Origin: Escherichia phage pO91
Sequence record: OR204650.1
DNA length: 39,650 nucleotides
Strand: one strand, 5' to 3'
Position 1 is the stretch's first letter. Each line of letters opens with the position of its first letter. The translations under genes were made by a program, and so were the position numbers. Shown here piece after piece: positions 9,391 to 36,135 of this stretch. The notes beneath the pieces are model-generated. The model made no database searches. It was not told the origin of the DNA and saw only the letters and a program-made list of their open reading frames with translations.

Positions 9391-9614
9391 TGACTCAAGA
9401 AGTTAAGGTCATTCGTCAGCGTCTGACCATTGATAAAATCCCTGTGGGATATGCGTTTATCGTCCACGGTAAGCCTGGTGAAGTGTACGTGAAGATTAGT
9501 AACTCTCACGTCTTCAACCATAAGTTGCTCCAGATGCACACAACGGATGCTAACCGCTTCCAACGTCATCTGAACCTCGTAGCTGTAGAGCTGGTGGTGT
9601 ACGATGGTGAGTAA
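9390..9614 (+). CDS. Hypothetical protein (74 aa) between endonuclease I and the amidase gene
   Basis: AAGGAG RBS, ATG at 9390; no counterpart at this position in T7. Confidence 0.55.
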   Translation: MTQEVKVIRQRLTIDKIPVGYAFIVHGKPGEVYVKISNSHVFNHKLLQMHTTDANRFQRHLNLVAVELVVYDGE

Positions 9615-10062
9615 GGTTCAGTTCAACCCACGGTCCCGTACTGACGCTATCTTCGTTCACTGTTCGGCTACCAAGCCAGATATGGACATCGGGGTAGAGA
9701 CCATCCGTATGTGGCATAAGCAGCAAGGCTGGCTGGACGTAGGCTACCACTTTATCATCAAGCGTGATGGCACTGTGGAAGAGGGTCGCCAGGTCAATGT
9801 AGTAGGGTCACACGTTAAGGACTGGAACTCACGGTCTGTAGGCGTCTGCCTTGTAGGTGGAATTGACGCTAAGGGCAAGTTTGAAGCTAACTTCACTCCG
9901 GCCCAGATGAACTCCCTGCGCAACAAGCTGGCTGACCTGAAGGCACTGTATCCTCAGGCAGAAATCAAAGCACACCATGACGTAGCACCTAAGGCGTGTC
10001 CAAGTTTCGACCTGCAACGCTGGCTGTCTACCAATGAACTGATCACTTCCGACCACGGTTAA
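9604..10062 (+). CDS. N-acetylmuramoyl-L-alanine amidase / T7 lysozyme homolog (gene 3.5)
   Basis: TDAIFVHCSATKP, WLDVGYHFIIKRDGTVEEGR, GVCLVGG, FTPAQM, HHDVAPKACPSFDL collinear with recalled T7 gp3.5. Confidence 0.95.
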   Translation: MVSKVQFNPRSRTDAIFVHCSATKPDMDIGVETIRMWHKQQGWLDVGYHFIIKRDGTVEEGRQVNVVGSHVKDWNSRSVGVCLVGGIDAKGKFEANFTPAQMNSLRNKLADLKALYPQAEIKAHHDVAPKACPSFDLQRWLSTNELITSDHG

Positions 10063-22783: not shown

Positions 22784-25141
22784 ATGCCACTAATTACTCA
22801 ATCAATCAAGAACCTTAAAGGCGGCATTAGCCAGCAGCCTGATATACTGAGGTTCTCAGACCAAGGCGAGGCACAGGTTAACTGCTGGTCATCCGAGAGT
22901 GATGGCCTCCAGAAGCGCCCACCTACAGTCTTCAAGCGACGTCTTAACATCGACGTTGGGAGCAACCCTAAGTTTCACCTGATTAACCGTGACGAGCATG
23001 AGCAGTATTACATCGTGTTCAATGGGTCCAACATTCAGGTAGTTGACTTGAGTGGTGATCAATACTCAGTGTCAGGTGCGGTAGACTACGTTAAGTCCTC
23101 CAACCCACGAGATGACATCCGTGTCGTTACCGTGGCAGACTATACGTTCGTCGTTAACCGTAAGGTTGTCGTCAAAGGTGGAAACGAGAAGTCACACTCT
23201 GGTTATAACCGCAAAGCACGAGCTTTAATTAACCTGCGTGGTGGACAGTATGGTCGAACCCTTAAGGTGGGAATCAACGGTGGCGTTAAGGTCTCGCATA
23301 AGCTACCAGCAGGTAATGATGCCGAGAATGACCCGCCTAAGGTGGACGCTCAAGCCATTGGTGCAGCTCTGAGAGACCTTCTTGTTCAGGCCTATCCTGA
23401 CTTCACGTTCGACCTTGGGTCTGGATTCCTGCTAATCACAGCTCCTTCAGGGACTGACATTAACTCAGTGGAGACGGAGGATGGCTACGCTAACCAGCTA
23501 ATAAGCCCAGTCCTAGACACTGTGCAGACAATCTCTAAACTACCTCTTGCAGCTCCTAATGGGTATATCATTAAGATTCAAGGTGAGACAAACAGTAGCG
23601 CCGATGAATACTACGTGATGTATGACTCCAACACTAAGACGTGGAAGGAGACAGTGGAGCCGGGAGTTGTCACTGGTTTCGATGTCACCACAATGCCACA
23701 TGCTCTGGTCAGACAGCCTGATGGCTCCTTTGAGTTTAAGACTCTGGATTGGTCCAAGCGTGGTGCTGGTAACGATGACACAAACCCTATGCCTAGCTTC
23801 GTGGATGCTACGATTAACGATGTGTTCTTCTACAGGAACAGGCTAGGGTTCTTGTCAGGTGAGAACGTAATAATGAGCCGTTCAGCCAGCTACTTTGCGT
23901 TCTTCCCTAAGAGTGTGGCGACACTGAGTGATGATGACCCTATTGATGTAGCTGTAAGTAACCCTCGAATCTCAATCCTTAAGTATGCCGTTCCGTTTAG
24001 CGAGCAGCTACTACTTTGGTCGGATGAGGTTCAGTTCGTGATGACAAGCTCTGGGGTACTTACCTCGAAGTCTATCCAGCTTGATGTAGGCTCAGAGTTT
24101 GCCCTAGGTGACAATGCCAGACCGTTCGCTGTAGGACGCTCAGTCTTCTTCTCAGCTCCTCGTGGGTCATTCACCAGCATTAAGCGATACTTCGCTGTAG
24201 CTGATGTGTCTGATGTGAAGGATGCCGATGATACAACTGGTCACGTACTGTCCTACATCCCTAACGGGGTGTTTGATATTCAAGGTACAGGGACTGAGAA
24301 CTACATCTGCGTCAACTCTACAGGTGCATACAACCGTATCTACATCTACAAGTTCTTGTTTAAGGACGGCGTACAGCTTCAAGCCTCTTGGTCACACTGG
24401 GAGTTCCCTAAAGATGATAAGATTCTGGCGTCTGCTTCTATTGGCTCTACCATGTTCATCGTTCGTCAGCACCAAGGAGGGGTAGACATTGAGCACCTTA
24501 AGTTCATCAAGGAGGCAACTGACTTCCCCTCAGAGCCATATAGACTACACCTTGACTCCAAGGTGTCTATGGTAATTCCAATTGGCTCATATAATGCTGA
24601 CACATATAAGACTACGGTTGACATTGGTGCTGCTTATGGTGGCAACGCTCCGTCTCCCGGTCGGTACTATCTGATTGACAGTCAGGGTGCCTACGTGGAC
24701 CTTGGGGATTTGACCAGTATCTCTACTGAGGTTATCCTCAACGGCGATTGGTCAGGACGCACAGTGTTCATCGGGCGGTCCTATCTGATGTCCTACAAGT
24801 TCTCACGATTCCTGATTAAGATTGAAGATGATAGTGGCACTCAGTCTGAAGACACTGGTCGTCTACAGCTTCGTCGGGCTTGGGTCAACTACAAAGACAC
24901 TGGCGCTCTGAGACTCATTGTCAGAAACGGTGAGCGGGAGTTCGTGAATACCTTCAACGGGTACACCCTTGGTCAGCAAACCATCGGGACTACCAACATT
25001 GGGGATGGTCAGTATCGCTTCGCTATGAACGGTAACGCATTAACCACGAGTCTAACCTTAGAGTCCGACTATCCTACCCCAGTGTCAATCGTTGGGTGTG
25101 GCTGGGAGGCGTCATACGCTAAGAAAGCTCGTTCCGTCTAA
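22784..25141 (+). CDS. Tail tubular protein B (T7 gene 12 homolog)
   Basis: SQSIKNLKGGISQQPDILR, HLINRDEHEQYY, VTVADYTF.VNR, DVFF.RNRLGFLSGEN, DDDPIDVAVS, KYAVPFSE, GRLQLRRAWVNY, IGCGWE collinear with recalled T7 gp12. Confidence 0.97.
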   Translation: MPLITQSIKNLKGGISQQPDILRFSDQGEAQVNCWSSESDGLQKRPPTVFKRRLNIDVGSNPKFHLINRDEHEQYYIVFNGSNIQVVDLSGDQYSVSGAVDYVKSSNPRDDIRVVTVADYTFVVNRKVVVKGGNEKSHSGYNRKARALINLRGGQYGRTLKVGINGGVKVSHKLPAGNDAENDPPKVDAQAIGAALRDLLVQAYPDFTFDLGSGFLLITAPSGTDINSVETEDGYANQLISPVLDTVQTISKLPLAAPNGYIIKIQGETNSSADEYYVMYDSNTKTWKETVEPGVVTGFDVTTMPHALVRQPDGSFEFKTLDWSKRGAGNDDTNPMPSFVDATINDVFFYRNRLGFLSGENVIMSRSASYFAFFPKSVATLSDDDPIDVAVSNPRISILKYAVPFSEQLLLWSDEVQFVMTSSGVLTSKSIQLDVGSEFALGDNARPFAVGRSVFFSAPRGSFTSIKRYFAVADVSDVKDADDTTGHVLSYIPNGVFDIQGTGTENYICVNSTGAYNRIYIYKFLFKDGVQLQASWSHWEFPKDDKILASASIGSTMFIVRQHQGGVDIEHLKFIKEATDFPSEPYRLHLDSKVSMVIPIGSYNADTYKTTVDIGAAYGGNAPSPGRYYLIDSQGAYVDLGDLTSISTEVILNGDWSGRTVFIGRSYLMSYKFSRFLIKIEDDSGTQSEDTGRLQLRRAWVNYKDTGALRLIVRNGEREFVNTFNGYTLGQQTIGTTNIGDGQYRFAMNGNALTTSLTLESDYPTPVSIVGCGWEASYAKKARSV

Positions 25142-25217: not shown

Positions 25218-25682
25218 ATGTATATTCGCAAGGCTACGGAACCAGATGTCCACTACTTTCTGTGGCATCTTTCAGCAGATGATGTTAATGAATGCAAAGC
25301 AAACTACGGGTCAACCGTGGGTCTCTCTGAGAGACTGCTTAAGCACCTATCTCCATCATCTGTGGTCTTAACTAACGGTGTAGGCGAAGTGTTTGCCTAT
25401 GGTGGAAACCAAGGGGATAACGTATGGTTCTTGACTTCGGGTCTTGTCCACAAGCTGAGACCTAAAGAGAAGCGAGAGTTCATAAAGCGTATCTCTGAGT
25501 ACAGGGACTTAATGTTAGACCAATACGGGACCATCTGGAACTACGTGTGGTCAGGCAATAAGTCTCACATTAAATTCTTGAAGTTGCTTGGTGCTAGGTT
25601 TCACGAGGAGTGGACTGTAAGCCCAGTAACTGGTGAGCGTTTTCAACTATTCACTATCTCTAAGGAGGATGGATGTGACTAA
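25218..25682 (+). CDS. Internal virion protein at the gene 13 position
   Basis: ORF track; AAGGAGA RBS; assignment by synteny only. Confidence 0.6.
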   Translation: MYIRKATEPDVHYFLWHLSADDVNECKANYGSTVGLSERLLKHLSPSSVVLTNGVGEVFAYGGNQGDNVWFLTSGLVHKLRPKEKREFIKRISEYRDLMLDQYGTIWNYVWSGNKSHIKFLKLLGARFHEEWTVSPVTGERFQLFTISKEDGCD

Positions 25683-26061
25683 GGTTTGTACCGTCTGTAA
25701 AATTGAAAAGCCGCTCGAGGCATTCTCTCCTCGGAAAGACTCTAAGTGTGGTGTGCGCTCGGCCTGTAAGCTGTGTCATAATGGCAGGAGTCACAAGAAC
25801 AAGGGATACGAGAAGTATCACATTACGCAGATAGAATATGATTCCATCCTAAAAGAGCAGGGTGGTGTCTGCGCAATCTGCAAGACATCAGGAACTAGCC
25901 GAGGATTATGCATTGACCATTGTCACATCTCCTGGAAAGTCCGAGGCATCCTTTGTCATACCTGCAACCTAAAGCTGACCCGTAGAAACTATCCTTCTAC
26001 ATGCGAAGATTTCGATGGTAAGGCTGCTGAGTACCTGGCTATAAGCCAGAAGGGGGATTAG
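25675..26061 (+). CDS. Endonuclease VII-family (HNH-type) nuclease
   Basis: GGVCAICK...RGLCIDHCH...RGILCHTCN matches the T4 endonuclease VII zinc/His-Cys pattern; start uncertain (GTG 25675 after AAGGAGG; the track ORF starts at 25633). Confidence 0.7.
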   Translation: MTKVCTVCKIEKPLEAFSPRKDSKCGVRSACKLCHNGRSHKNKGYEKYHITQIEYDSILKEQGGVCAICKTSGTSRGLCIDHCHISWKVRGILCHTCNLKLTRRNYPSTCEDFDGKAAEYLAISQKGD

Positions 26062-26088: not shown

Positions 26089-26652
26089 ATGGGTCTCATG
26101 GCTGTAGCCGGGGCCACTATGTCCGCATCCCAACAGGCCAAGGCCGAAGGTGCAGCAATTGACGCTCAGAACCGACAGGCTCAGGAAATGGTTAAGCAGA
26201 TGAACTACTCTGACGCCAACCTGAAGATGCAGGAGCGAGACCTGAAGGAGCAGCAGATGGCTGAACTGACAGAGACCACGCTCAACGGTATACGCAATCA
26301 GGGTATGGTCAGAGCTGCGGTAGCTGAGTCCGGTCTGGAAGGTAACTCTATGGACAGGATTGAACGTCAGGTCGAGGGAGACACAGTCAAGGAGAGAGCA
26401 GGGATTACCGAAAGTTACAACCGCGACTATGCGGCTATCTTCGGGAACCGTATCGCCAACATTGAGAACACAAAGTCTGCTATCCGTGGTCAAGGTAAAA
26501 TCATCAAGACCAGCCCACTGGCTCATGCACTTAATGTTGCTACCGCCGGGATGCAAGGCTACGCCGCTGGTAAGTCAATCTCTGGAGCGTCCAGCTCTGG
26601 GGGTGCTGCACCTATTAGTGCTGCTAAAGGCACACCTACAGGTCATAGCTAA
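26089..26652 (+). CDS. Internal virion protein (T7 gene 14 homolog)
   Basis: LEGNSMDRI and RDYAAIF match recalled T7 gp14; position between gp13 and gp15; exact start uncertain. Confidence 0.8.
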   Translation: MGLMAVAGATMSASQQAKAEGAAIDAQNRQAQEMVKQMNYSDANLKMQERDLKEQQMAELTETTLNGIRNQGMVRAAVAESGLEGNSMDRIERQVEGDTVKERAGITESYNRDYAAIFGNRIANIENTKSAIRGQGKIIKTSPLAHALNVATAGMQGYAAGKSISGASSSGGAAPISAAKGTPTGHS

Positions 26653-26663
26653 GAGGAGGACTA

Positions 26664-28946
26664 ATGGCTAGTAATATTGAATCAGCTCTGGCTAATCGGA
26701 CTATGGGTCGTGGCAGAGCGCCGGGTAAAACTATCGCCGTCAACTATCAAGCAGCAAACGTTCAGGCTCCCACTGGGGACTCCGGGCTGGCTCGTGCATT
26801 AACTAACTTCGTTGAGTCTGGGACAGGATTGTACAAGCAGTTCAAGGACGATGAGAAGACAAGAGCCGACGAGCGGTCTAACGAGATTATCCGTAAGCTG
26901 ACACCTCAGCAAAGACGTGAGGCTATCCAGAACGGCACATTGCTGTATCAGGATGACCCTTACGCTATGGAAGCACTTCGAGTCAAGACTGGTCGTAACG
27001 CTGCCTTTGCGGTGGATGACGAGATTAACGTTAAGATTCAGAACGGTGAGTTCCGTACACGTCAGGACATGGAAGAGTATCGCCACCAGCGACTTCAAGA
27101 CGCAGCTAAGTCCTATGCTGAAGAGGCGGGTATTAACCCTACCGACGAGTTCTTCCAGCGTGGATTCAACGATAACATCACGGACCGAAACATCGCTATC
27201 TACGGGTCATTCAATAAGTATTTCAGCAAGCAGTCTGAAGAGACAGCAATGTTGAACACTCGTATTGAGATGAACTCGTTCCTTAACGATGGGGACCTGA
27301 TGCGTTCGCCTGAGTCTGGAAAGACCTTCATGGCCTACCTTCGGGATGGACTGACGACTGCTGCTATACCTTCGGACCAGAGAGCACGAGAGGTCATCAC
27401 CCAGACGGTCCGTGACGCAATCCAGAAGTCAGGAGGCTCAAACTTCCTACAGCAAGTCCGTGGCGAGCGTATCACCCTTAATGGTGTTGACGCTACCATC
27501 GAAGAGATTGTAGGACCTGACGTCTTCAATGCTGCTATGGTTGAGGCCCAAGGTACTGAGTATAAACTGGTGGCTAAGTATCAGGAAGACTTGGCGTTAG
27601 GCGTTCAGTCTGCGATTCTTCAGGATGACCCAACCATCGGTCTGGCCCAGATTCAAAAACTCAAGGAGCAGAACAACCAGCTTCAACCCGGCGAAGAACT
27701 CACTCCTCAGCGACAGATGCTTATTAACGCCGAAGCCACACTACTGGAAGCGGTAAAGCGTAAGTCTGCTGAACAGGCGAAGGAGAACACGAAGTTAATC
27801 CAGACACAGAACAAGCAACTGGTCATTGACCAAGTTTATCAGCGACGTCTTGCTGGGGACAACGTGTCCACCAACTATGAGGACCTTCCGGTCTCTGAAG
27901 CCACAGGAGAGTTCAAGCGTTCAGACATGAACAACTATGCGTCTGCCAAGCTACAGCAGATTGACCAGATGGACATCCCTGAGGCTGCTAAGGACGCTCA
28001 GAAGGTGGCATTGTTAAGAGCTGACACTAACAACGGTCCGTTCCGTAATGCCTTCCAGACGCTTACTCAGGACGCTGCTGGTGAGTGGCAAGCTGCGGTC
28101 ATCCGTGGACAGTACGACCCAAACAAGATGCAACGCTTCGAGTCTCTTCGTCGTTCCTACACTCAGGACCCTTCAAGTTTCGCTGCTCTGTATCCTGACC
28201 AAGCTCAGTTGTTCTCTACGTTCGACCAGATGGACAAGATGGGTCTGGACCCTCAGACGATGATTGAAGCTGATAAGCAAGCTGCAAGTCAAAGCCGTGA
28301 GATGCGCATGGAGTCAGACAAGGCGTGGCAGGAGTTGAAGAACGACTCCAAGAACACCCAGTTGTCTCGCCTCCCAACGTCTCTGGACTCAAGTGCTCGT
28401 AAGGTCTGGGACTCATGGTACTATCGTACAGGTAACGCTGACGCTGCAACGCAGCAGACTCAACGCTGGCTGAATGAGAACACCGTAACGTTCCAGTCTG
28501 AAGGTTCTGACGGTAAGTCCATCGGCATGGTGTCCAAGCACCAGCTTATGGTCGGGGATAACCCAGAGTCGTGGCAGGTTGGTCGAGACATTATCGACAC
28601 CGCTCGTAAGCAGCTCATTAAGGCCAACCCTTGGGTAGTGAACTCTCAGTTGTCCGTTGTTGAACAGAACGGCTCTATCTTCCTCCAAGACGCTACAGGG
28701 ACTATTCGTATTCGCTACGATAAAGAACTTGTAGGTAAACTCTACCGCGAACAACAGCAGAAGGCACAAGATGCCGCATACGCTCAGGCAGAACGTGACG
28801 CTAACAAGCGAGCGCGTATCGTCGAGACTAAAGCTGCTGGTGACAAACGTCGAGCTGACCGAGAGGCCAACATCGAGAAGCGCGGTGGGATGTACAATGA
28901 CGTCTCACTGGAGGGTATCGCAAACACCTTAATTGGTAAGGAGTAA
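26664..28946 (+). CDS. Internal virion protein (T7 gene 15 homolog)
   Basis: 760 aa versus about 747 in T7; AGGAGGA RBS; called on size, synteny and general similarity. Confidence 0.85.
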   Translation: MASNIESALANRTMGRGRAPGKTIAVNYQAANVQAPTGDSGLARALTNFVESGTGLYKQFKDDEKTRADERSNEIIRKLTPQQRREAIQNGTLLYQDDPYAMEALRVKTGRNAAFAVDDEINVKIQNGEFRTRQDMEEYRHQRLQDAAKSYAEEAGINPTDEFFQRGFNDNITDRNIAIYGSFNKYFSKQSEETAMLNTRIEMNSFLNDGDLMRSPESGKTFMAYLRDGLTTAAIPSDQRAREVITQTVRDAIQKSGGSNFLQQVRGERITLNGVDATIEEIVGPDVFNAAMVEAQGTEYKLVAKYQEDLALGVQSAILQDDPTIGLAQIQKLKEQNNQLQPGEELTPQRQMLINAEATLLEAVKRKSAEQAKENTKLIQTQNKQLVIDQVYQRRLAGDNVSTNYEDLPVSEATGEFKRSDMNNYASAKLQQIDQMDIPEAAKDAQKVALLRADTNNGPFRNAFQTLTQDAAGEWQAAVIRGQYDPNKMQRFESLRRSYTQDPSSFAALYPDQAQLFSTFDQMDKMGLDPQTMIEADKQAASQSREMRMESDKAWQELKNDSKNTQLSRLPTSLDSSARKVWDSWYYRTGNADAATQQTQRWLNENTVTFQSEGSDGKSIGMVSKHQLMVGDNPESWQVGRDIIDTARKQLIKANPWVVNSQLSVVEQNGSIFLQDATGTIRIRYDKELVGKLYREQQQKAQDAAYAQAERDANKRARIVETKAAGDKRRADREANIEKRGGMYNDVSLEGIANTLIGKE

Positions 28947-28950
28947 CATA

Positions 28951-31900
28951 ATGGCGACTCGTGGTATTCGCAATAATAATCTGGGTAACCTCCGGGTAAG
29001 TAAGGACCAATGGGAAGGTGCTGTGGGCGATGATGGTGCATTCGTTATCTTCGATAGTCCTGAATCAGGAGTAAGAGCATTAGCGAAAAACCTTCAAAGC
29101 TACGGTCGCCAAGGTTATGACTCCATCGAGAAGATTATCAACCGATGGGCACCTCCTAACGAGAACGACACTCAGTCTTATATTAACTCAGTGGTGGCTG
29201 CGACTGGTATTCCAGCTACCCAGAGTCTCGACCTATCGGACCCTGACACCCTGTCTTCTCTGGCTCAAGCTATCGGCTTCCATGAGACAGGCTCCCGGTA
29301 CGACCCTGAAGTCTATCAGAAGGGAGTCGCACGAGCACTCAATGGCATTAGCCCAAAGACTCCACCAGTAAGCGCTAACGTATTTGACGCACTCACGGAA
29401 GGACTCAAGGCTAAACCTAACGTAGCTCTGGGTGAGAACCTTCCGACCGCTGCTGGTCTGAACATTGAGGGTCAAACACCTGAAGCTCCCAACGAATCGT
29501 TCGGCGAGATGTTCTATAAGGCTACTGGAGAGACCATGCAGGAACGAGAGGACCGCTCTACGTGGTTCGGTTTCGGTGCGGCTACAGAAGCTGAAGTGAA
29601 GAACTCTATGGGCGGCGTGGCTATCCGCGCTGGTCAGACCGAGGACTCACTTGATGTCATTGGCGATGTGTTTAACCCGACCCGCTGGAATAACCATAAG
29701 TGGACTCGTGAGGAGCTTGACCAGATTCGCAACGCTGGGGTTCTTCCTCAGTATTACGGGGTCATTACTGGAGGCTCTCCTCAGAACCTGACCGAGCTTA
29801 TTAACTTGGCGCTTGAGAACCAGAAGTTGGACCAAGAGAAGGCCAAGGCTGGGACTGGTGCTCAGCTAGCCGCTGGTGTTATTGGTGCTGGCGTGGACCC
29901 TCTGACATACGTTCCTATTGCTGGACAGGTGTGGAAAGGAGGTAAACTGGTCAACAAGATGTTCACCGTGGCAGCTCAATCTGGAGCACTGGCTGGTGTG
30001 TCTGAGAGGGCCCGTACCTCAGTGGCTGGTGGTGATGCTCATGTGGCTGAAGCTATCCTTGGTGGTGCTCTCTTCGGTGGTGGTATGACGGCTATCGCTG
30101 ACGGACTAGGCAGAGCCTTAGGTCGTAACACTAACGAGTTCGCTGGCCCAGCTACACGTCTGGAAGCCCGTGAGACTGCACGTAATGTTGATGGTCAGGA
30201 CCTGTCGCGTATGCCAATCCGTGAAGGAGAGGAGACCTTTAGTCACCAAGGCGTTAAGTTCGCTGACGTGCCGAATGAGCCGGGAAGTGTACGATTAGAA
30301 GACGGTTCAATCCTGATTGGTGAGAACCCTCTGAATCCTAAGACACGTCAAGTCTTTGACGAAGTGATTGAGCCGGAACGTGCCGCTGCTGGCGTGAACC
30401 TTGGTGGACTTACCGAGATTGGGCTGAAGCTGCTTCGGTCTGAGAACCCTGAGATTCGTGGAGTAGCTGCTGACTTAGTGCGTTCACCGACTGGTATGCA
30501 GTCTGGGGCCTCAGGTAAAATCGGGACCACTGCATCTGACGTATTCGAGAGACTTCGTGCTGTAGATCATCGGTTCTACAACGACATCGACGATGCTGTT
30601 ACTGAGGCGCTCAAGGACCCATACTTCCAGACAGCATTCTGGCGAGACTCTGGCGCATTCCGTCAAGACGTCTATCAGCGTGTGTCTATGGCTATCGAAG
30701 ATGGTAGTGGGAACCTGAAGGCTGAACTAACTCCGGGAGAGCTGAAAGTATATGACCTGCTGAAGAACCAGTTTGACGCCAAGCGTGAGATGATGGAGAA
30801 CCCGTCTATGTTTGGTCGTCCAGACGCTAAGTCTATCTTTCCGGGTAGCCGCTTCAAGGGAACCTACGTCCCGCATGTGTATAGCAACCAGATGAAGGAG
30901 CTGTACATCAAGGAGCTTGGGAGTCCAGAGGCGTTGCAGGAGGCAATCAAGAAGTCATGGCTTACCAGCTATGCGTCTCGACCTGAAGTAAAGAAACGTG
31001 TGGACGAGGCACTATTAGAGGCTGACCCTACGTTGACTCCAGAAGGACTTGCGGCTGCGGTCGATAAGTACGCCAACGATAAGGCTTACGGTATCTCTCA
31101 CACGGAGCAGTTCGAGCGTTCATCCGTAATGGAAGAGAACATCAACGGTCTGGTAGGTCTGGAGAACAACAGCTTCCTTGAGGCGCGCAACCTGTTCGAT
31201 AGCGATATGTCAATCGTCCTGCCTAACGGTCAGACCTTCAGTGTCAATAACCTACGTGAGTGGGACATGGACAAGATTGTCCCGGCCTACAACCGTCGAG
31301 TTAACGGCGACATTGCTATCATGGCTGGTACAGGAAAGACCACGAAGGACATGAAGGACTTGGTTGAGACCCTGATGAACAAAGCCGGTGATGACGGAAA
31401 GTTGAAAGGTGAGGTATCTACCTTACGTGACACCTTGAAGATTCTCACTGGTCGTGCTCGACGTGATGGTGCTGATGATGCAGCCTTCAATACCGTTCTG
31501 CGCACAATGACAGACCTATCGTTCTTCGCTAAGAATGCCTACATGGGTGTTCAGAACTTAACGGAGATTGGTGGTATGCTGGCTCGCGGTAACGTTCGTG
31601 CAATGCTTCATGGAGTCCCGATGTTCCGTGACCTAGCCTTCCGTAACAAGAAGGTCGGAGCCTCAGAGATTAAGGACCTTCACAATGTTCTCTTCGGTAA
31701 GGAACTGGACGACTCAATCCGTCCGTCTAAACAGGATGTCATTGACCGTCTGCGCTCCTACAGCGACCTCGGTCGTGGTACGGCTACAGCTCTGGGGACT
31801 GCCAAGTATTACACCGGTGAACTTGCAGTACGCTCTCCTTTAACTAAAGTCCTCAACGGTACGACAAACTACCTGTTAGATGCTGGACGTCAAGGCTTCC

Positions 31901-32838
31901 TGTCTGACATCGTGGAGCATAGTCTGACTGGCAGTAAGCGTAAGTTCGATGACCGCTGGCTGAAGACCGCTGGTATCTCTGACGAGCAGTGGAAGGGTAT
32001 TAAGTCCCTAATCCGTGAGTCAGTGACTCGTGGTCCAGACGGGAAGTATACCATCAAGGATAAGAAGGCGTTCAGTCAGGACCCAAGGGCTATGGACCTG
32101 TGGCGTATGGGTGACACCATCGCTGACGAGACATTGCTTCGTCCACACAAGCTGAGTAACATGGACGCCAAGGCTTATGGCCCTCTGGCTAAGACTGTCC
32201 TTCAGTTTAAGAACTTCGTCATCAAGTCCATCAATGGGCGTACCATGCGAACCTTCTATAACGCCACGAAGAACAACCGAGCGATGGATGCTGCTCTGTC
32301 CACTGTGATGTCTATGGGTCTTGCTGGTATCTACTACATGGCTCAGGCACACATCAAGGCTTACGCTATGCAGGATGGTCGTGACCGTGACTACCTCAAG
32401 CAAGCTCTGGACCCGACGATGATCGGATATGCGGCTCTGTCCCGTAGTTCACATCTCGGTGGACCACTTGGTGTAGCTAACATTCTGGGTGGTATCGCTG
32501 GGTACGAGGACACTAAGATGCTCCGTTCATCTATCCTACCTCGTTCACCTACAGAGAAGCCTGAACGTGCCATCGCGTATGGTGCAGCTACAAGTGACCC
32601 TGTGATGAATATTGTTGGTAACTTCTTGGAGCAGGTTCCAGCTTTCGGATATGCTGCTAACGTTGGCGCTTCGGCTTACAACTTGGCTGGCTACCTAAAG
32701 GCCGATACTCGTGTCAACGAGCGTGACTACATGACCGGGATGTATAATACGTTCCGTGAACTGGTTCCGAACGACCCCATTACCCAGAAGCTGTTACTTG
32801 GAACGTTTGAGGAGCAAGGCATCCACATCAAGGACTAA
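28951..32838 (+). CDS. Internal virion protein (T7 gene 16 homolog) with a non-T7 N-terminal module
   Basis: From about residue 185 collinear with recalled T7 gp16 (STWFGF, PTRWN, VAGGDA, RLEARETARN, DLVRSPTGMQSGASGK, GTYVPHVY, ILTGRARR, LDPTMI); first ~180 aa lack SLT motifs; ATG 28951 after AAGGAG. Confidence 0.92.
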   Translation: MATRGIRNNNLGNLRVSKDQWEGAVGDDGAFVIFDSPESGVRALAKNLQSYGRQGYDSIEKIINRWAPPNENDTQSYINSVVAATGIPATQSLDLSDPDTLSSLAQAIGFHETGSRYDPEVYQKGVARALNGISPKTPPVSANVFDALTEGLKAKPNVALGENLPTAAGLNIEGQTPEAPNESFGEMFYKATGETMQEREDRSTWFGFGAATEAEVKNSMGGVAIRAGQTEDSLDVIGDVFNPTRWNNHKWTREELDQIRNAGVLPQYYGVITGGSPQNLTELINLALENQKLDQEKAKAGTGAQLAAGVIGAGVDPLTYVPIAGQVWKGGKLVNKMFTVAAQSGALAGVSERARTSVAGGDAHVAEAILGGALFGGGMTAIADGLGRALGRNTNEFAGPATRLEARETARNVDGQDLSRMPIREGEETFSHQGVKFADVPNEPGSVRLEDGSILIGENPLNPKTRQVFDEVIEPERAAAGVNLGGLTEIGLKLLRSENPEIRGVAADLVRSPTGMQSGASGKIGTTASDVFERLRAVDHRFYNDIDDAVTEALKDPYFQTAFWRDSGAFRQDVYQRVSMAIEDGSGNLKAELTPGELKVYDLLKNQFDAKREMMENPSMFGRPDAKSIFPGSRFKGTYVPHVYSNQMKELYIKELGSPEALQEAIKKSWLTSYASRPEVKKRVDEALLEADPTLTPEGLAAAVDKYANDKAYGISHTEQFERSSVMEENINGLVGLENNSFLEARNLFDSDMSIVLPNGQTFSVNNLREWDMDKIVPAYNRRVNGDIAIMAGTGKTTKDMKDLVETLMNKAGDDGKLKGEVSTLRDTLKILTGRARRDGADDAAFNTVLRTMTDLSFFAKNAYMGVQNLTEIGGMLARGNVRAMLHGVPMFRDLAFRNKKVGASEIKDLHNVLFGKELDDSIRPSKQDVIDRLRSYSDLGRGTATALGTAKYYTGELAVRSPLTKVLNGTTNYLLDAGRQGFLSDIVEHSLTGSKRKFDDRWLKTAGISDEQWKGIKSLIRESVTRGPDGKYTIKDKKAFSQDPRAMDLWRMGDTIADETLLRPHKLSNMDAKAYGPLAKTVLQFKNFVIKSINGRTMRTFYNATKNNRAMDAALSTVMSMGLAGIYYMAQAHIKAYAMQDGRDRDYLKQALDPTMIGYAALSRSSHLGGPLGVANILGGIAGYEDTKMLRSSILPRSPTEKPERAIAYGAATSDPVMNIVGNFLEQVPAFGYAANVGASAYNLAGYLKADTRVNERDYMTGMYNTFRELVPNDPITQKLLLGTFEEQGIHIKD

Positions 32839-32902: not shown

Positions 32903-35023
32903 ATGTCCACGATTACACAATTCCCTTCAGGAAACACTCAGTACAGGATTGAGTTCGACTACCTAGCCAGAACGTTTGTTGTTGTTACGCTGGTGAATAG
33001 CTCTAACCCTACCCTGAACCGTGTACTGGAAGTTGGTCGAGATTACCGATTCCTTAATCCAACGATGATTGAGATGTTGGTTGACCAATCAGGTTTCGAC
33101 ATCGTTCGTATTCACCGTCAGACTGGAACTGACTTAGTGGTAGACTTCAGGAATGGCTCAGTGTTGACAGCTAGTGACCTGACCAATGCAGAGCTTCAGG
33201 CTATCCATATTGCAGAAGAAGGTCGAGACCAAACTGTTGACTTAGCGAAGGAATATGCCGATGCTGCTGGTAGCTCTGCTGGCAACGCTAAGGATAGCGA
33301 GGACGAAGCACGACGAATCGCTGCTACTATCAAGGCAGCTAGTCTAGTTGGTTATATTACCCGTCGCTCCTTCGAGAAAGGCTTCAACGTTACAACATGG
33401 AACGAGGCCCTGCTATGGGAAGAGGATGGTGATTATTACCGCTGGGATGGTACGCTTCCAAAGAACGTTCCTGCTGGTTCAACTCCTGAAACGTCTGGTG
33501 GCATTGGGTTAGGCGCGTGGGTTAGTGTCGGCGATGCTACATTGCGCAATCAAATATCTGACCCTGACGGTGCCACTAAGTACCCAGCGTTACAAATTGC
33601 GCGTTGGCGTGATGAAGGAGATGTGCGCGGTTGGGGTGCTGGTGAAGAAGGTTTTAACGCCGCGATGTCTGCTATTAGCTCATCAGGAGGTGGGACGTTA
33701 TTTGTAAACGAGGATATTCTTTTCACTTCGTTACCTATTAACCACCTACCAAAAGTTACAGTCCACTGGAACGCTAAGGCAATTGTGCAGACCGGACTTA
33801 CATCGACTTACGCCTACATCATGGACGGTGGCGCCGATACTCCATCTTATGATAATACCGACCACTTTACGCTAGCTAACAAAACTAACTGTTACGGCTT
33901 GCGTTTAGAGGCGCAGGATTACACTGTCGGGATCAATGCCATTGGTGTATGTGTTAGGCATTGCTACGGGTGGACTTACGAAGGGGGAGCCATTATCGGA
34001 TTTAATAATGGAGGTTTCTACGAGACTAACAACTACGAAGGAAAAGCCAGCAAGTTCACTCTAGTTGTAGCCAATACAAGACTTGATAACTCCGTGGGGT
34101 TTGAAAGTAATTCAACTGACAGTTGGTTTAGTGAAATTTCGCCAGTAGGTTATTCAATCGGTGGAAAGTTTAATAAGAGTGGTAACTCTCTAGATAAATT
34201 TCATCCATGGGGAAACACTGTTGATAATCGCGTAGGCGTGATGGGGAAGATGAATGTTGGTATCGTAATTACAGAGAATGGAGGTTTTTCTACATATTCA
34301 AATATTATTCTTGATACTCCAGTAAGGAAAAACACCAATAATGTCCCATCTAGAAGTAATGGTGGGGTTGGTGTAATTTGTGATGCATGGGACTGCGTTC
34401 TTGATGGGATTCTTGTATTACCGTCCAAACATGACACAGTAGCAAAAAGTACCTTACCAATGATCACCACTACGCAAAGATCAACAATAAAAGATTTTCA
34501 GGTTTCGGGTGAGCAGTATGTAACAGACATATGGATTTCATTTGAAAACAATTCAGGGATAGCCAGGAATCACGTTTCAGGTTATGGGTATGCTGAAAAA
34601 ATGCGTACAGGAATGACCTTTGGGCCTAATTCTGGAGCTGCCCTTGCAAGTGCTGGGGGTGTAACGATGTCGAGCCAAACTCTGACCTCTGGAATATGGA
34701 ACAACACATTAAGTTTTTCCATAGCTACAACAGTAACAGCTATACCGTCAGCAACAGGTGATGTAATTGTTAATATATCTCCTGTTTATGGCATTAAATC
34801 TGGATTCGGAGGTACTGTTAAGGGTGGTATGTTTGCATTCTTCTATGCTACCGCTAACTCCTCCAAACAATTGTACGATGTGTCCATAGAAGTTACAGCA
34901 GACAACACAGCTAAGTTTCTGCTAACGTTTATCGACGGCACGACACGGTACGCACGATGGACAGATGTATCTAACGGTTCATCAAGAAGCATAAGCATAT
35001 CAGGAGTCCTTAATATAAAATAA
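32903..35023 (+). CDS. Tail fibre / tailspike protein (T7 gene 17 homolog N-terminus, divergent C-terminal receptor-binding module)
   Basis: N-terminal ~150 aa (FDYLARTFVVVTL, DYRF, DFRNGSVLTASDL, AEEGRD) match the recalled T7 gp17 adaptor domain; the remainder is unrelated to T7 and the last ~1 kb is visibly AT-rich. Confidence 0.9.
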   Translation: MSTITQFPSGNTQYRIEFDYLARTFVVVTLVNSSNPTLNRVLEVGRDYRFLNPTMIEMLVDQSGFDIVRIHRQTGTDLVVDFRNGSVLTASDLTNAELQAIHIAEEGRDQTVDLAKEYADAAGSSAGNAKDSEDEARRIAATIKAASLVGYITRRSFEKGFNVTTWNEALLWEEDGDYYRWDGTLPKNVPAGSTPETSGGIGLGAWVSVGDATLRNQISDPDGATKYPALQIARWRDEGDVRGWGAGEEGFNAAMSAISSSGGGTLFVNEDILFTSLPINHLPKVTVHWNAKAIVQTGLTSTYAYIMDGGADTPSYDNTDHFTLANKTNCYGLRLEAQDYTVGINAIGVCVRHCYGWTYEGGAIIGFNNGGFYETNNYEGKASKFTLVVANTRLDNSVGFESNSTDSWFSEISPVGYSIGGKFNKSGNSLDKFHPWGNTVDNRVGVMGKMNVGIVITENGGFSTYSNIILDTPVRKNTNNVPSRSNGGVGVICDAWDCVLDGILVLPSKHDTVAKSTLPMITTTQRSTIKDFQVSGEQYVTDIWISFENNSGIARNHVSGYGYAEKMRTGMTFGPNSGAALASAGGVTMSSQTLTSGIWNNTLSFSIATTVTAIPSATGDVIVNISPVYGIKSGFGGTVKGGMFAFFYATANSSKQLYDVSIEVTADNTAKFLLTFIDGTTRYARWTDVSNGSSRSISISGVLNIK

Positions 35024-35141: not shown

Positions 35142-35336
35142 ATGATTGAGTTAGACTTCAAGAATGAGGTCCTTAAAGCCTCTCCTATCGTCGGGACCGC
35201 TGCGGCTGATGGTGCCAGTCGGTTCTTCTTCGGACTTACACTGAACGAATGGTTCTACGTTGCAGTTATCGCGTACACCGTTGTCCAGATTGGTGTGCTA
35301 GTCTACAAAACGATTAAAGGAGGTGGTAAAACATGA
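35142..35336 (+). CDS. Holin (T7 gene 17.5 homolog)
   Basis: LDFKNEVLKASPIVGT..AD...RFFFGLTLNEWFYVAVIAYTVVQIG matches recalled T7 gp17.5. Confidence 0.92.
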   Translation: MIELDFKNEVLKASPIVGTAAADGASRFFFGLTLNEWFYVAVIAYTVVQIGVLVYKTIKGGGKT

Positions 35337-35697: not shown

Positions 35698-36135
35698 ATG
35701 CTCGAATTTTTAAAGAGAGCGGCTCCGTGGTTACTTGCAGCAGTGATGTTTGCTGGTGGCTACCACACCGCTAACAATAAGTGGGAGGCTAAGGTCAATG
35801 CAGAATACACCTCGAATCTTAAGGCATCGGAAGATACAAGGCTTGCTGTCCAAGCTGAAGTCAACAAAGTGTCCAGACGGTTTCAGGACGAAATGTCCTC
35901 GCTGGAAGGCAGCACTGATAGGATTATTGCTGACCTTCAGTCTGACAATAAGCGGTTGCGCGTCAAAGTCAACACCTCAGGTCTCACCGAGTCCGATATC
36001 AGTCGATGCTTCCCTAATGGTAGAGTCGAATTACACGAGTCAACTTCTAGAAGTCTTATCGAAATAACCCAGAAGGCAGACTTAAAGGAGAAGGCTTTAC
36101 AGGATACCATAAGGAGGTTGCAGGGTGCTAAGTGA
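35698..36135 (+). CDS. Rz-like i-spanin (T7 gene 18.5 homolog)
   Basis: MLEFLKRAAPWLLA, LEGSTDRIIADLQSDNKRLRVKV, LQDTIRRLQ match recalled T7 gp18.5. Confidence 0.92.
   Translation: MLEFLKRAAPWLLAAVMFAGGYHTANNKWEAKVNAEYTSNLKASEDTRLAVQAEVNKVSRRFQDEMSSLEGSTDRIIADLQSDNKRLRVKVNTSGLTESDISRCFPNGRVELHESTSRSLIEITQKADLKEKALQDTIRRLQGAK
35798..36067 (+). CDS. Rz1-like o-spanin lipoprotein embedded in the +1 frame of Rz (T7 gene 18.7 homolog)
   Basis: PRWKAALIGLLLTFSLTISGCAS lipobox and SVDASLMVE match recalled T7 Rz1; GGAGG 9 nt before ATG 35798; wholly inside the Rz gene. Confidence 0.85.
   Translation: MQNTPRILRHRKIQGLLSKLKSTKCPDGFRTKCPRWKAALIGLLLTFSLTISGCASKSTPQVSPSPISVDASLMVESNYTSQLLEVLSK

Follow-up and report, generated by a model that had tools for sequence, protein, structure and literature searches.

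In T7-type phages, three internal core proteins leave the virion before the DNA and reassemble as a trans-envelope channel; gp16 is the largest of them. Phage T7 gp16 (structures 7EYB, 7K5C and 6YT5) is the inner-membrane component of this ejectosome, and carries a murein-cutting domain at its N-terminus, a Pfam SLT domain with E37 in an E-S motif, and with the motifs GMMQ and AYNQG. This domain cuts at the MurNAc-GlcNAc bond and yields 1,6-anhydroMurNAc ends. Previous work has described the murein-cutting module of Autographivirales ejectosomes as exchangeable, with overall length being constrained (bioRxiv 10.64898/2026.05.18.726046; PMC5380687). For example, phiKMV/Ar-KM gp42 has a T4-lysozyme-like domain located on a gp15-like protein, and SP6/K1-5 have a lysozyme-type domain; like the domain we describe here, these are swappable murein-cutting ejectosome modules, but they belong to another fold family and occupy another host protein or position.

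A second group of described proteins is the family of the Hafnia phage Enc34 endolysin (ORF39, PDB 7Q47), which also includes M4Lys of Salmonella phage BSPM4 and the CDD entry PHA02564, 'V virion protein'. The Enc34 report (PMC8943055) describes a crystal structure with an all-helical domain and a permuted helix order, assigns Glu131 by structural superposition, argues that the domain and GH23/GH73 share a very remote ancestor, and shows that ORF39deltaC lyses outer membrane-permeabilised E. coli, P. aeruginosa and H. alvei. Purified peptidoglycan is degraded by M4Lys-deltaTMD with release of GlcNAc, and LC-MS of M4Lys in this one study identified N-acetylglucosaminidase products and also suggested endopeptidase activity (PMC7143992). 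In these reports, Enc34 ORF39deltaC and M4Lys-deltaTMD are the only members of the family with muralytic activity demonstrated by experiment (PMC8943055, PMC7143992). An Enc34-like domain is also present in a virion component, GP11 of vibriophage NO16, where a role at entry has been proposed (PMC13552765), and our tblastn searches matched the gp16 head described below to 'P5-like structural proteins' of tailless (Vinavirales-type) phages; both NO16 GP11 and the P5-like proteins belong to tailless phages that contain a membrane, and are small and stand alone, outside a T7-type ejectosome. The NO16 protein named 'GP16' is unrelated to gp16. Our literature search found no publication connecting Enc34 with gp16.

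Here we analyzed gene 16 of Escherichia phage pO91 within a stretch of 39,650 nucleotides (OR204650.1; the window), which represents a K1F-like (Kayfunavirus) T7-type phage. The coordinates of all features are collected in Table 1.

Table 1. Gene 16 of phage pO91, its neighbours, its modules and its putative active-site codons (positions in the window)
Feature	Position	Strand	Basis and remarks
gp14 homologue (outer-membrane ejectosome component), gp16 partner	26089..26652	+	Pfam T7_gp14, E 9.5e-43
gp15 homologue (periplasmic tunnel component), gp16 partner	26664..28946	+	position and size as in T7, K1F and PE3-1
Shine-Dalgarno AAGGAG of gene 16	28938..28943	+	overlaps the end of gene 15; direct sequence reading
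Gene 16 homologue (internal virion protein D, ejectosome inner-membrane component)	28951..32838	+	1295 aa plus stop; ORF list, BLASTP, phmmer, PHROG 342
Replaced head, residues 1-125	28951..29325	+	Enc34-type (PHA02564) lysozyme-like, mainly helical, predicted peptidoglycan glycosidase domain
Short mosaic patch within the head, codons 23-51	29019..29103	+	26 nt differences from PE3-1, near-identical flanks
Codon W66, Enc34 Trp79 equivalent (putative substrate-positioning aromatic)	29146..29148	+	alignment; conservation
Codon Y77, Enc34 Tyr95 equivalent	29179..29181	+	alignment; conservation
Codon E112, Enc34 Glu131 equivalent (proposed catalytic acid), motif F-H-E-T-G	29284..29286	+	alignment; role as proposed in PMC8943055
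Linker, residues 126-185	29326..29505	+	homologous to T7 gp16 ~153-207, weakly conserved; BLASTP, alignment, binned identities
gp16 body, residues 186-1295	29506..32835	+	collinear with T7 gp16; BLASTP, phmmer, binned identities

A single unbroken open reading frame spans 28933..32838, and its ATG at 28951 lies 7 nt past the AAGGAG and 4 nt past the TAA stop codon of gene 15 (28944-28946); translation from this ATG gives exactly the N-terminus quoted in the original prediction, MATRGIRNNNLGNLRVSKDQWEG. The same Met begins the near-identical 1295-aa chain 9vvp_L in PDB, which matches gp16 with 2819 bits (phmmer), and the T7 gp16 chains 7eyb, 7k5c and 6yt5 are also matched, with these matches covering residues 126-1294. 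The assignment to PHROG 342 (E=0), the gene order gp13-gp14-gp15-gp16-gp17, and a homologous body of ~1150 aa in a gene that follows those of gp14 and gp15 place this protein in the T7 gp16 family. It shares the gene position of T7 gp16, is of similar length (1295 versus 1318 aa), and presumably shares its role as an inner-membrane ejectosome component with an N-terminal murein-cutting domain.

The head, however, is not homologous to that of T7: it is of Enc34 type and has E112, where T7 has the SLT domain with E37. Neither the whole of gp16 nor residues 1-190 gave any match in Pfam or NCBIfam, even at E<=1, whereas residues 15-127 of T7 gp16, used as a control, were recognized as PF01464 SLT with an E-value of 1.7e-31, which agrees with the original prediction that this head lacks the SLT motifs. 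The N-terminal SLT domain with E-S, GLMQ-like and AYNxG motifs found in the T7 gp16 family is absent here. The prediction had listed the SLT catalytic Glu-Ser among the missing motifs; the head does contain the dipeptide E-S once, at residues 38-39 (SPESG), but this is neither SLT motif I nor a credible catalytic pair of SLT type, since Enc34 has Ala at the equivalent position and the site varies within the head family. The extent of the exchange also required correction. Collinearity with T7 gp16, placed by the prediction at about residue 185, begins at 125-126 (T7 152-153) by both BLASTP and phmmer, and the replaced module, thought to be ~180 residues long, comprises residues 1-125 only; the swapped region therefore corresponds to 28951-29325, and an end at 29490 overshoots by ~55 codons. 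The linker that follows shows 24-36% identity to T7 gp16 and contains the junction motif GI[ST]PK at 132-136, which is GISPK here and is common to T7 and MmP1 (GITPK); AF2 pLDDT drops to 76 and then 64 beyond residue 130. Residues 125-1295 share 53% identity with T7 gp16 overall (BLASTP), with 53-72% per 100-residue bin over residues 301-1200 and 38% in the last bin.

Our searches identify residues 1-125 as a member of the Enc34-endolysin/PHA02564 family. Using residues 1-190 against PDB, head residues 3-122 match residues 7-139 of the Enc34 endolysin catalytic domain (7q47_A) with an E-value of 2.3e-13 (phmmer), and the head alone is matched by several virion-lysin families (phrog_873 at 3e-50, and also 992, 2276 and 7182). 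The head has the helical two-bundle fold (alpha2-alpha6) of this family and is superposable on 7Q47, with GH73 glucosaminidases being the next-closest structural relatives. The characteristics of GH73 enzymes of the FlgJ and TM0633 type, i.e., an alpha/beta lysozyme fold with a beta-lobe, collinear helices and a Pfam Glucosaminidase match, were not found. The domain is compact, of the Enc34 type and distantly related to GH73/GH23 enzymes, with the catalytic helix in permuted order; its conserved Glu lies towards the C-terminus (E112), as opposed to E37 in T7, which fits the helix permutation reported for Enc34. At the level of the whole protein the two differ: in contrast to the Enc34 and M4Lys endolysins, the domain forms the N-terminus of an ejected core protein of 1295 aa, in which it is joined to the gp16 body and encoded among the virion-core genes, with a separate amidase endolysin and the lysis genes located elsewhere.

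Alignment to 7q47 pairs Trp79, Tyr95 and Glu131 of Enc34 with W66, Y77 and E112 of the head, and a predicted model that superposes on 7Q47 at 2.1 Å suggests that these three residues would cluster in space. In an alignment of 35 diverse homologues, Y77 is invariant, E112 is at least 90% conserved and W66 is near-invariant; in 25 gp16-fused heads, which represent 22 distinct sequences, E112 and Y77 are each present in all 25, and position 66 is occupied by W in 23 heads and by Y in the other 2. The gp16 head is under purifying selection (dN/dS 0.05-0.21). The sequence around the proposed catalytic Glu is HETG in 23 of these 25 heads (Kayfunavirus), as opposed to HENG in most of the family, although the residue following the Glu also varies among active members in the 35-sequence alignment. 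This phage has L11 and L14 within a motif that otherwise reads RNNNPGNI.

Comparison with gp16 of relatives, proposed as a check with the original prediction, demonstrated that the Enc34-type head is common to K1F, other Kayfunavirus and MmP1. The same architecture occurs in gp16 of K1F (head 92% identical) and of other Kayfunavirus, in Gp29 of phage E1004 (PDB 9VVP; head ~93% identical in 9vvp_L) and in gp16 of Morganella phage MmP1 (Minipunavirus; head ~40% identical), and relative to all of these pO91 has a private 85-nt mosaic patch and the L11/L14 variants. Gp29, which is near-identical to gp16, is modelled with 4 chains in 'Core proteins of the bacteriophage E1004' (9VVP), and by analogy gp16 is probably packaged in the capsid core in the same way. 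A scan of IMG/VR provided 78 complete gp16 loci, in which head type follows clade exactly: all 23 Kayfunavirus-like loci have the Enc34-type head and all 55 T7/K11-like loci have SLT, with no third head type on a T7-like body in these 78 loci. Two further loci scored as 'neither' are contig-end truncations, and the locus of Enterobacter phage 01_vB_Eclo_IJM was left out as a fragmented record with many frameshifts. The supplement of a preprint citing the 9VVP/E1004 core structure contains no Kayfunavirus entry. The module swap is real, and ordinary for the genus Kayfunavirus.

What we describe is a non-orthologous replacement of the peptidoglycan-cutting head of the ejectosome by a kind of domain that has already been characterised, and very probably this phage retains the T7-type linker and body with an Enc34-type murein-cutting head that acts at entry in place of SLT. 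Once ejected into the periplasm, the head would be tethered by the flexible linker of ~60 residues and would cleave murein glycan strands locally, allowing gp15/gp16 to reach and span the inner membrane, with E112 as the putative catalytic acid, while Y77 and W66 would hold the sugar in place. Judged from M4Lys and GH73 enzymes, the target of cleavage is probably the GlcNAc-beta-1,4-MurNAc bond (N-acetylglucosaminidase), which would be the other glycosidic bond than that cut by the T7 transglycosylase, and hydrolytic glucosaminidase chemistry would be expected instead of lytic transglycosylase chemistry.

The original prediction had named a diverged canonical SLT domain as the finding that would count against it, and we tested this directly. 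That the head is such a highly diverged SLT/GH23 lytic transglycosylase, collinear with that of T7, is scarcely credible: profile-profile comparison of the head family with T7-like SLT heads (hhalign) gave a probability of 0.5% and an E-value of 0.11, and no SLT/GH23 structure was among the top fold matches. In its favour are the distant GH23/GH73 ancestry argued by the Enc34 authors and the sole local match of hhalign, which pairs the helix 'SPESGVRALAKNL' with T7 77-96 'NPELAINAAAKQL'. The part of the prediction that the murein-cleaving head was exchanged for a different, possibly enzymatic domain is supported by the Enc34-type homology. Almost as improbable is that the head works late in infection, in lysis from within, as do the bona fide endolysins of the Enc34, chi-like and BSPM4 phages that belong to the same domain family. 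The window encodes a separate T7-type set, an amidase (Amidase_2, 9604-10062), a T7 holin (35142-35336) and a weak, sub-threshold Rz-like match (35698-36135), and the gp16 head is therefore not needed for lysis; it is also fused to a capsid-core protein, the packaging of which is seen in the near-identical 9VVP, and ends in the gp16 linker with no signal sequence or transmembrane domain of the Enc34-endolysin type.

Whether the head cuts at all can also be questioned, since the N-terminal motif and the site beside the proposed catalytic Glu (HENG to HETG) both carry lineage-specific changes, and since the transglycosylase activity of T7 itself is reportedly dispensable in standard laboratory conditions (Moak and Molineux 2000). 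Mutants in the T7 gp16 transglycosylase reportedly show a delay at 20 °C or below and on stationary-phase cells (Moak and Molineux 2000). It is nevertheless unlikely that the head is a relic without catalytic activity, or that it only binds peptidoglycan or serves as a structural module to anchor or position gp16, given the invariant E112 and Y77 and the aromatic residue at position 66 in all 25 gp16-fused heads, the low dN/dS, and the variability of the post-Glu residue in active family members. Somewhat more room is left for an active head that cuts another bond, i.e., a muramidase, a lytic transglycosylase or a dual glycosidase/endopeptidase, a possibility we consider improbable to a lesser degree: specificity has been measured for M4Lys only, with mixed glucosaminidase and endopeptidase signals, and the GH73/GH23-like fold family covers several specificities, but GH73 glucosaminidases rank next to Enc34 in structural similarity, and M4Lys digestion removes GlcNAc from muropeptides.

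An Enc34-type murein-cutting head on gp16 does not overturn current understanding, and its value lies mostly in an annotation gap. In >200 sequenced Kayfunavirus genomes, gp16 is labelled 'peptidoglycan lytic exotransglycosylase/transglycosylase' or 'with endolysin domain', a transglycosylase label in all likelihood carried over from T7, and a 2025 in-silico survey found 1295-aa proteins without a lytic domain (PMC12031403); the actual domain of the Kayfunavirus gp16 head is Enc34-type, a predicted glycosidase. The Enc34-type family is large (~18,700 clusters at 50% identity; 13,153 representatives at E<=1e-10 with our homologue profile) and occurs across many virion-protein architectures, and there is no Pfam or NCBIfam model for it, therefore surveys of ejectosome lysin domains, for example one reporting an 'identifiable' lysin domain in 127/205 Autographivirales genera (bioRxiv 10.64898/2026.05.18.726046), may undercount such heads. 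As a small, mainly helical, cysteine-free module, the head is also a candidate enzybiotic.

Since the Enc34-type head is probably a hydrolase of the GlcNAc-MurNAc bond, the ejectosomes of Kayfunavirus and Minipunavirus may open murein by another chemistry than T7 does, perhaps insensitive to factors that affect transglycosylases or lysozymes, a speculation we hold to be doubtful. If true, the candidates for such insensitivity would be MurNAc modifications and periplasmic inhibitors of the Ivy/MliC type, and fixation of the swap throughout entire genera would be explained by an entry advantage dependent on host range or conditions. In a bolder variant of this speculation, the head may be bifunctional (glycosidase plus endopeptidase), as suggested for M4Lys. 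With two unrelated murein-cutting heads on one ejectosome chassis, these phages represent a natural experiment that probes the contribution of the head to DNA entry.

Gene 16 lies in an uninterrupted open reading frame from 28933 to 32838, with AAGGAG located 7 nt before the ATG at 28951 and overlapping the end of gene 15, and the 1295-aa PDB chain 9vvp_L has the same starting methionine; this spacing and the start of 9vvp_L agree with the start at 28951 and the N-terminal peptide given in the original prediction, which are correct. Our searches confirm the absence of an SLT (lytic transglycosylase) domain from the head of gp16, as had been proposed: neither whole gp16 nor residues 1-190 matched any Pfam-A or NCBIfam model, even at E<=1, while our positive control for Pfam, T7 gp16, matched PF01464 (SLT) over residues 15-127 with an E value of 1.7e-31. 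BLASTP against T7 gp16 gave a single collinear alignment (53% identity) from window residue 125 (T7 residue 152) to the C-terminus, with nothing aligned for window residues 1-124, and a phmmer search of PDB showed residues 126-1294 to be covered by the T7 gp16 chains 7eyb, 7k5c and 6yt5. Since collinearity with T7 gp16 starts at residue 125-126, the replaced module is residues 1-125 (28951-29325), and the boundary formerly placed at about residue 185 is some 60 residues too far along. Residues 126-185 are a weakly conserved linker homologous to T7, with GI[ST]PK (132-136) common to T7 and MmP1.

An unlikely alternative, against which the original prediction was to be judged, is that the head is a diverged but canonical SLT domain. 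Alignment of the head-family profile with a profile of 13 T7-like SLT heads using hhalign gave a probability of 0.5% and an E value of 0.11, and the conserved Glu is at residue 112 in the window head vs residue 37 for the catalytic Glu of T7; by this test the head is not a diverged canonical SLT domain. We rejected E38-S39 as SLT motif I, as Enc34 has Ala at the aligned position and the pair varies among family members. Between the two head families, hhalign gave a single match, which is not significant (E 0.11) and pairs window gp16 residues 35-54 (29053-29112; helix alpha2, 'DSPESGVRALAKNLQSYGRQ') with T7 gp16 residues 77-96 ('LNPELAINAAAKQLAGLVGK'). The Enc34 authors describe the region containing this helix as collinear with GH23 enzymes (PMC8943055), and the pairing may be a weak remnant of the deep common ancestry that they propose.

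Several lines of evidence point to an Enc34-type domain, i.e., one like the catalytic domain in the endolysin of Hafnia phage Enc34. Residues 2-156 match PHROGs profiles of several virion and lysis protein families that have just this module in common (phrog_873, 'endolysin', 3e-50; phrog_992, 2276 and 7182 at 1e-19 to 1e-26), with the module located internally in each profile (670-1280 positions). Using phmmer against all PDB sequences, we identified two relatives: 9vvp_L ('Gp29', 'Core proteins of the bacteriophage E1004'), a full-length protein near-identical to window gp16 and present as four chains, and 7q47_A ('Endolysin', E 2.3e-13), the Enc34 catalytic domain (Cernooka et al. 2022, PMC8943055). 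The latter, assigned to NCBI family PHA02564, lyses outer membrane-permeabilised E. coli, P. aeruginosa and H. alvei, and has an all-helical fold similar to the lysozyme alpha-lobe; on superposition, residues important for catalysis in GH73 (TM0633) and GH23 (phiKZ gp144, MltC) enzymes coincide with its Glu131, Tyr95 and Trp79, with its Glu-bearing helix permuted in sequence position relative to both families (PMC8943055). Residue mapping along the phmmer alignment equates Enc34 Trp79, Tyr95 and Glu131 with window W66, Y77 and E112. In an alignment of the window head with 34 diverse homologues, drawn from a collection of 5.8 billion proteins, Y77 is invariant, W66 and E112 each show conservation of 90% or more, and the N-terminal motif R7-N8-N9-N10-x-x-N13 is also conserved. 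An AlphaFold2 model of residues 1-150 based on this alignment (pLDDT 87.4, pTM 0.82) matched 7q47 in Foldseek (E 4e-10, TM 0.77), with no SLT or GH23 structure near the top of its structural matches. The phmmer match, conservation and predicted fold therefore all favor the proposal that the head was swapped for a different, possibly enzymatic domain, and catalytic roles for W66, Y77 and E112 would carry over from the superposition-based Enc34 assignment.

We classified the N-termini of 80 IMG/VR loci encoding gp16-body relatives using the Enc34-type family HMM and the T7 head. All 23 loci whose body shares 72% or more identity with that of window gp16 contain an Enc34-type head, and all 55 with T7/K11-like bodies (53-57% identity) contain an SLT head; the remaining two are cut by contig ends, and no third head type or mixing was seen. 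The K1F head is 92% identical to that of the window, and the Morganella phage MmP1 (Minipunavirus) head is ~40% identical, similar to its body divergence (~50%). These clade-matched heads, together with the K1F and MmP1 copies, indicate that the swap is old and fixed in the clade, rather than recent in this phage. The head is unlikely to be a dead relic: E112 and Y77 are invariant in all 25 gp16-fused heads (22 distinct sequences), where residue 66 is W or Y, and Nei-Gojobori dN/dS is 0.05-0.21 for the head vs 0.04-0.07 for the body (same pairs with measurable dS), so that the head is clearly under purifying selection.

Head dS exceeds body dS because of a mosaic patch at 29019-29103 (gene 16 codons 23-51), with 26 nt differences from PE3-1 in ~85 nt, mostly synonymous, and flanks near-identical to PE3-1. 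The 150-nt bin 28950-29100 has no more than 82% identity to any of 23 IMG/VR relatives, vs 97-100% in adjoining bins, and the best match among 216 GenBank phage records is 85%. The patch resembles a short stretch acquired by recombination from a lineage not yet sampled. L11 and L14, within the RNNN-P-GN-I motif, occur in the window alone (position 11 is A, L, I or V elsewhere in the family), and 23 of 25 gp16 heads (Kayfunavirus) read H-E-T-G vs H-E-N-G in most of the family (position 113).

The window is a virtually complete T7-type podophage genome (39.65 kb), with gene order as in T7 on the + strand, and its gene 16 region shares 92-94% DNA identity with ~150 Kayfunavirus (K1F-like) phages, e.g., PE3-1, CHX131 and LM33_P1. 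As separate T7-type lysis genes are present, the gp16 head is not required as an endolysin. The Endonuclease_7 ORF, with an uncertain GTG start and a 50-nt overlap with the 3' end of gp13, is probably a homing-endonuclease-type insertion; in PE3-1 and K1F, gp14 directly follows gp13. The C-terminal ~490 aa of the tail fibre/spike have no Pfam match, GC is 0.40 at 34001-35000 within this gene vs ~0.50 elsewhere, and the protein is much shorter than the product of K1F gene 17 (3195 nt), suggesting that a receptor-binding or depolymerase module has been swapped.

Genes around gene 16 and lysis genes in the window
Feature	Coordinates	Details
Amidase_2 lysis gene	9604-10062	
gp12	22784-25141	
gp13	25218-25682	Pfam Phage_T7_Gp13
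Extra Endonuclease_7 ORF	25633-26061 (+)	142 aa; PF02945, E 1.3e-14; between gp13 and gp14
gp14	26089-26652	Pfam T7_gp14
gp15	26664-28946	
Gene 16	28951-32838	
Tail fibre/spike	32903-35023 (+)	706 aa; T7 tail-fibre N-terminal domain and Tail_spike_N (PF18668)
Holin	35142-35336	
Rz-like	35698-36135	weak match, 24.5 bits, marginally below the Pfam cut-off of 25.4

The N-terminal domain of T7 gp16 digests murein locally so that the channel can be completed (PMC5380687; bioRxiv 10.64898/2026.05.18.726046). By position and homology, window gp16 would be an inner-membrane ejectosome component, with local digestion most likely carried out by the Enc34-type head in place of the T7 domain. The head would hang on a flexible linker, as predicted pLDDT falls after residue 130, with E112 as the putative acid catalyst. 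A related domain, M4Lys, breaks down purified peptidoglycan, with loss of GlcNAc from muropeptides shown by LC-MS (PMC7143992); this one study and the resemblance to GH73 make N-acetylglucosaminidase the likely specificity by analogy. Overall lengths are close to those of T7 (gp16, 1295 vs 1318 aa; three ejectosome proteins in total, 2242 vs 2261 aa), in line with a published constraint on the length of ejectosome modules (bioRxiv 10.64898/2026.05.18.726046).

The domain family, fold and activity are already published (2020-2022), a near-identical protein has been modelled by cryo-EM (PDB 9VVP, released 2025-11), and an Enc34-type head on gp16 is the architecture of every Kayfunavirus sequenced since K1F (2005). 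Lysin modules are known to move within Autographivirales ejectosomes (bioRxiv 10.64898/2026.05.18.726046). In the searchable literature, which does not cover the K1F genome and E1004 structure papers, we found no explicit naming of the K1F-type gp16 head as Enc34-type, and in a survey from 2025 the 1295-aa proteins of SHAK9454, SHAK7854, LNA3 and LNA5 are given without a recognisable domain (PMC12031403); SHAK9454 is also among the DNA-level relatives of our gene 16 region. GenBank labels on gp16 relatives, e.g., 'peptidoglycan lytic exotransglycosylase', 'peptidoglycan transglycosylase' and 'endo-type membrane-bound chitopentaose', with (exo)transglycosylase in many, are in all likelihood transferred or spurious. 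An Enterobacter phage record classed as Kayfunavirus (OP272490.1, 01_vB_Eclo_IJM, 44908-54258; 56 kb, 199 features) has core-protein genes split among dozens of short ORFs (30-280 aa) and was probably assembled chimerically or with many errors; its fragments recur as separate proteins (P0114, P0124) in protein collections. Our exhaustive profile search identified 18,691 representatives (50% identity) of the Enc34-type family at E<=1e-3, and 13,153 at E<=1e-10, with the domain stand-alone or N-terminal, central or C-terminal in large proteins; one 762-aa protein (P0125) has four stretches matched by the profile. BFVD matches are mostly 'Virion protein' or uncharacterised, and despite its very large size the family has no Pfam-A or NCBIfam model. 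The head swap, while unsurprising to a specialist, can help annotation and offers a natural experiment in head exchange.
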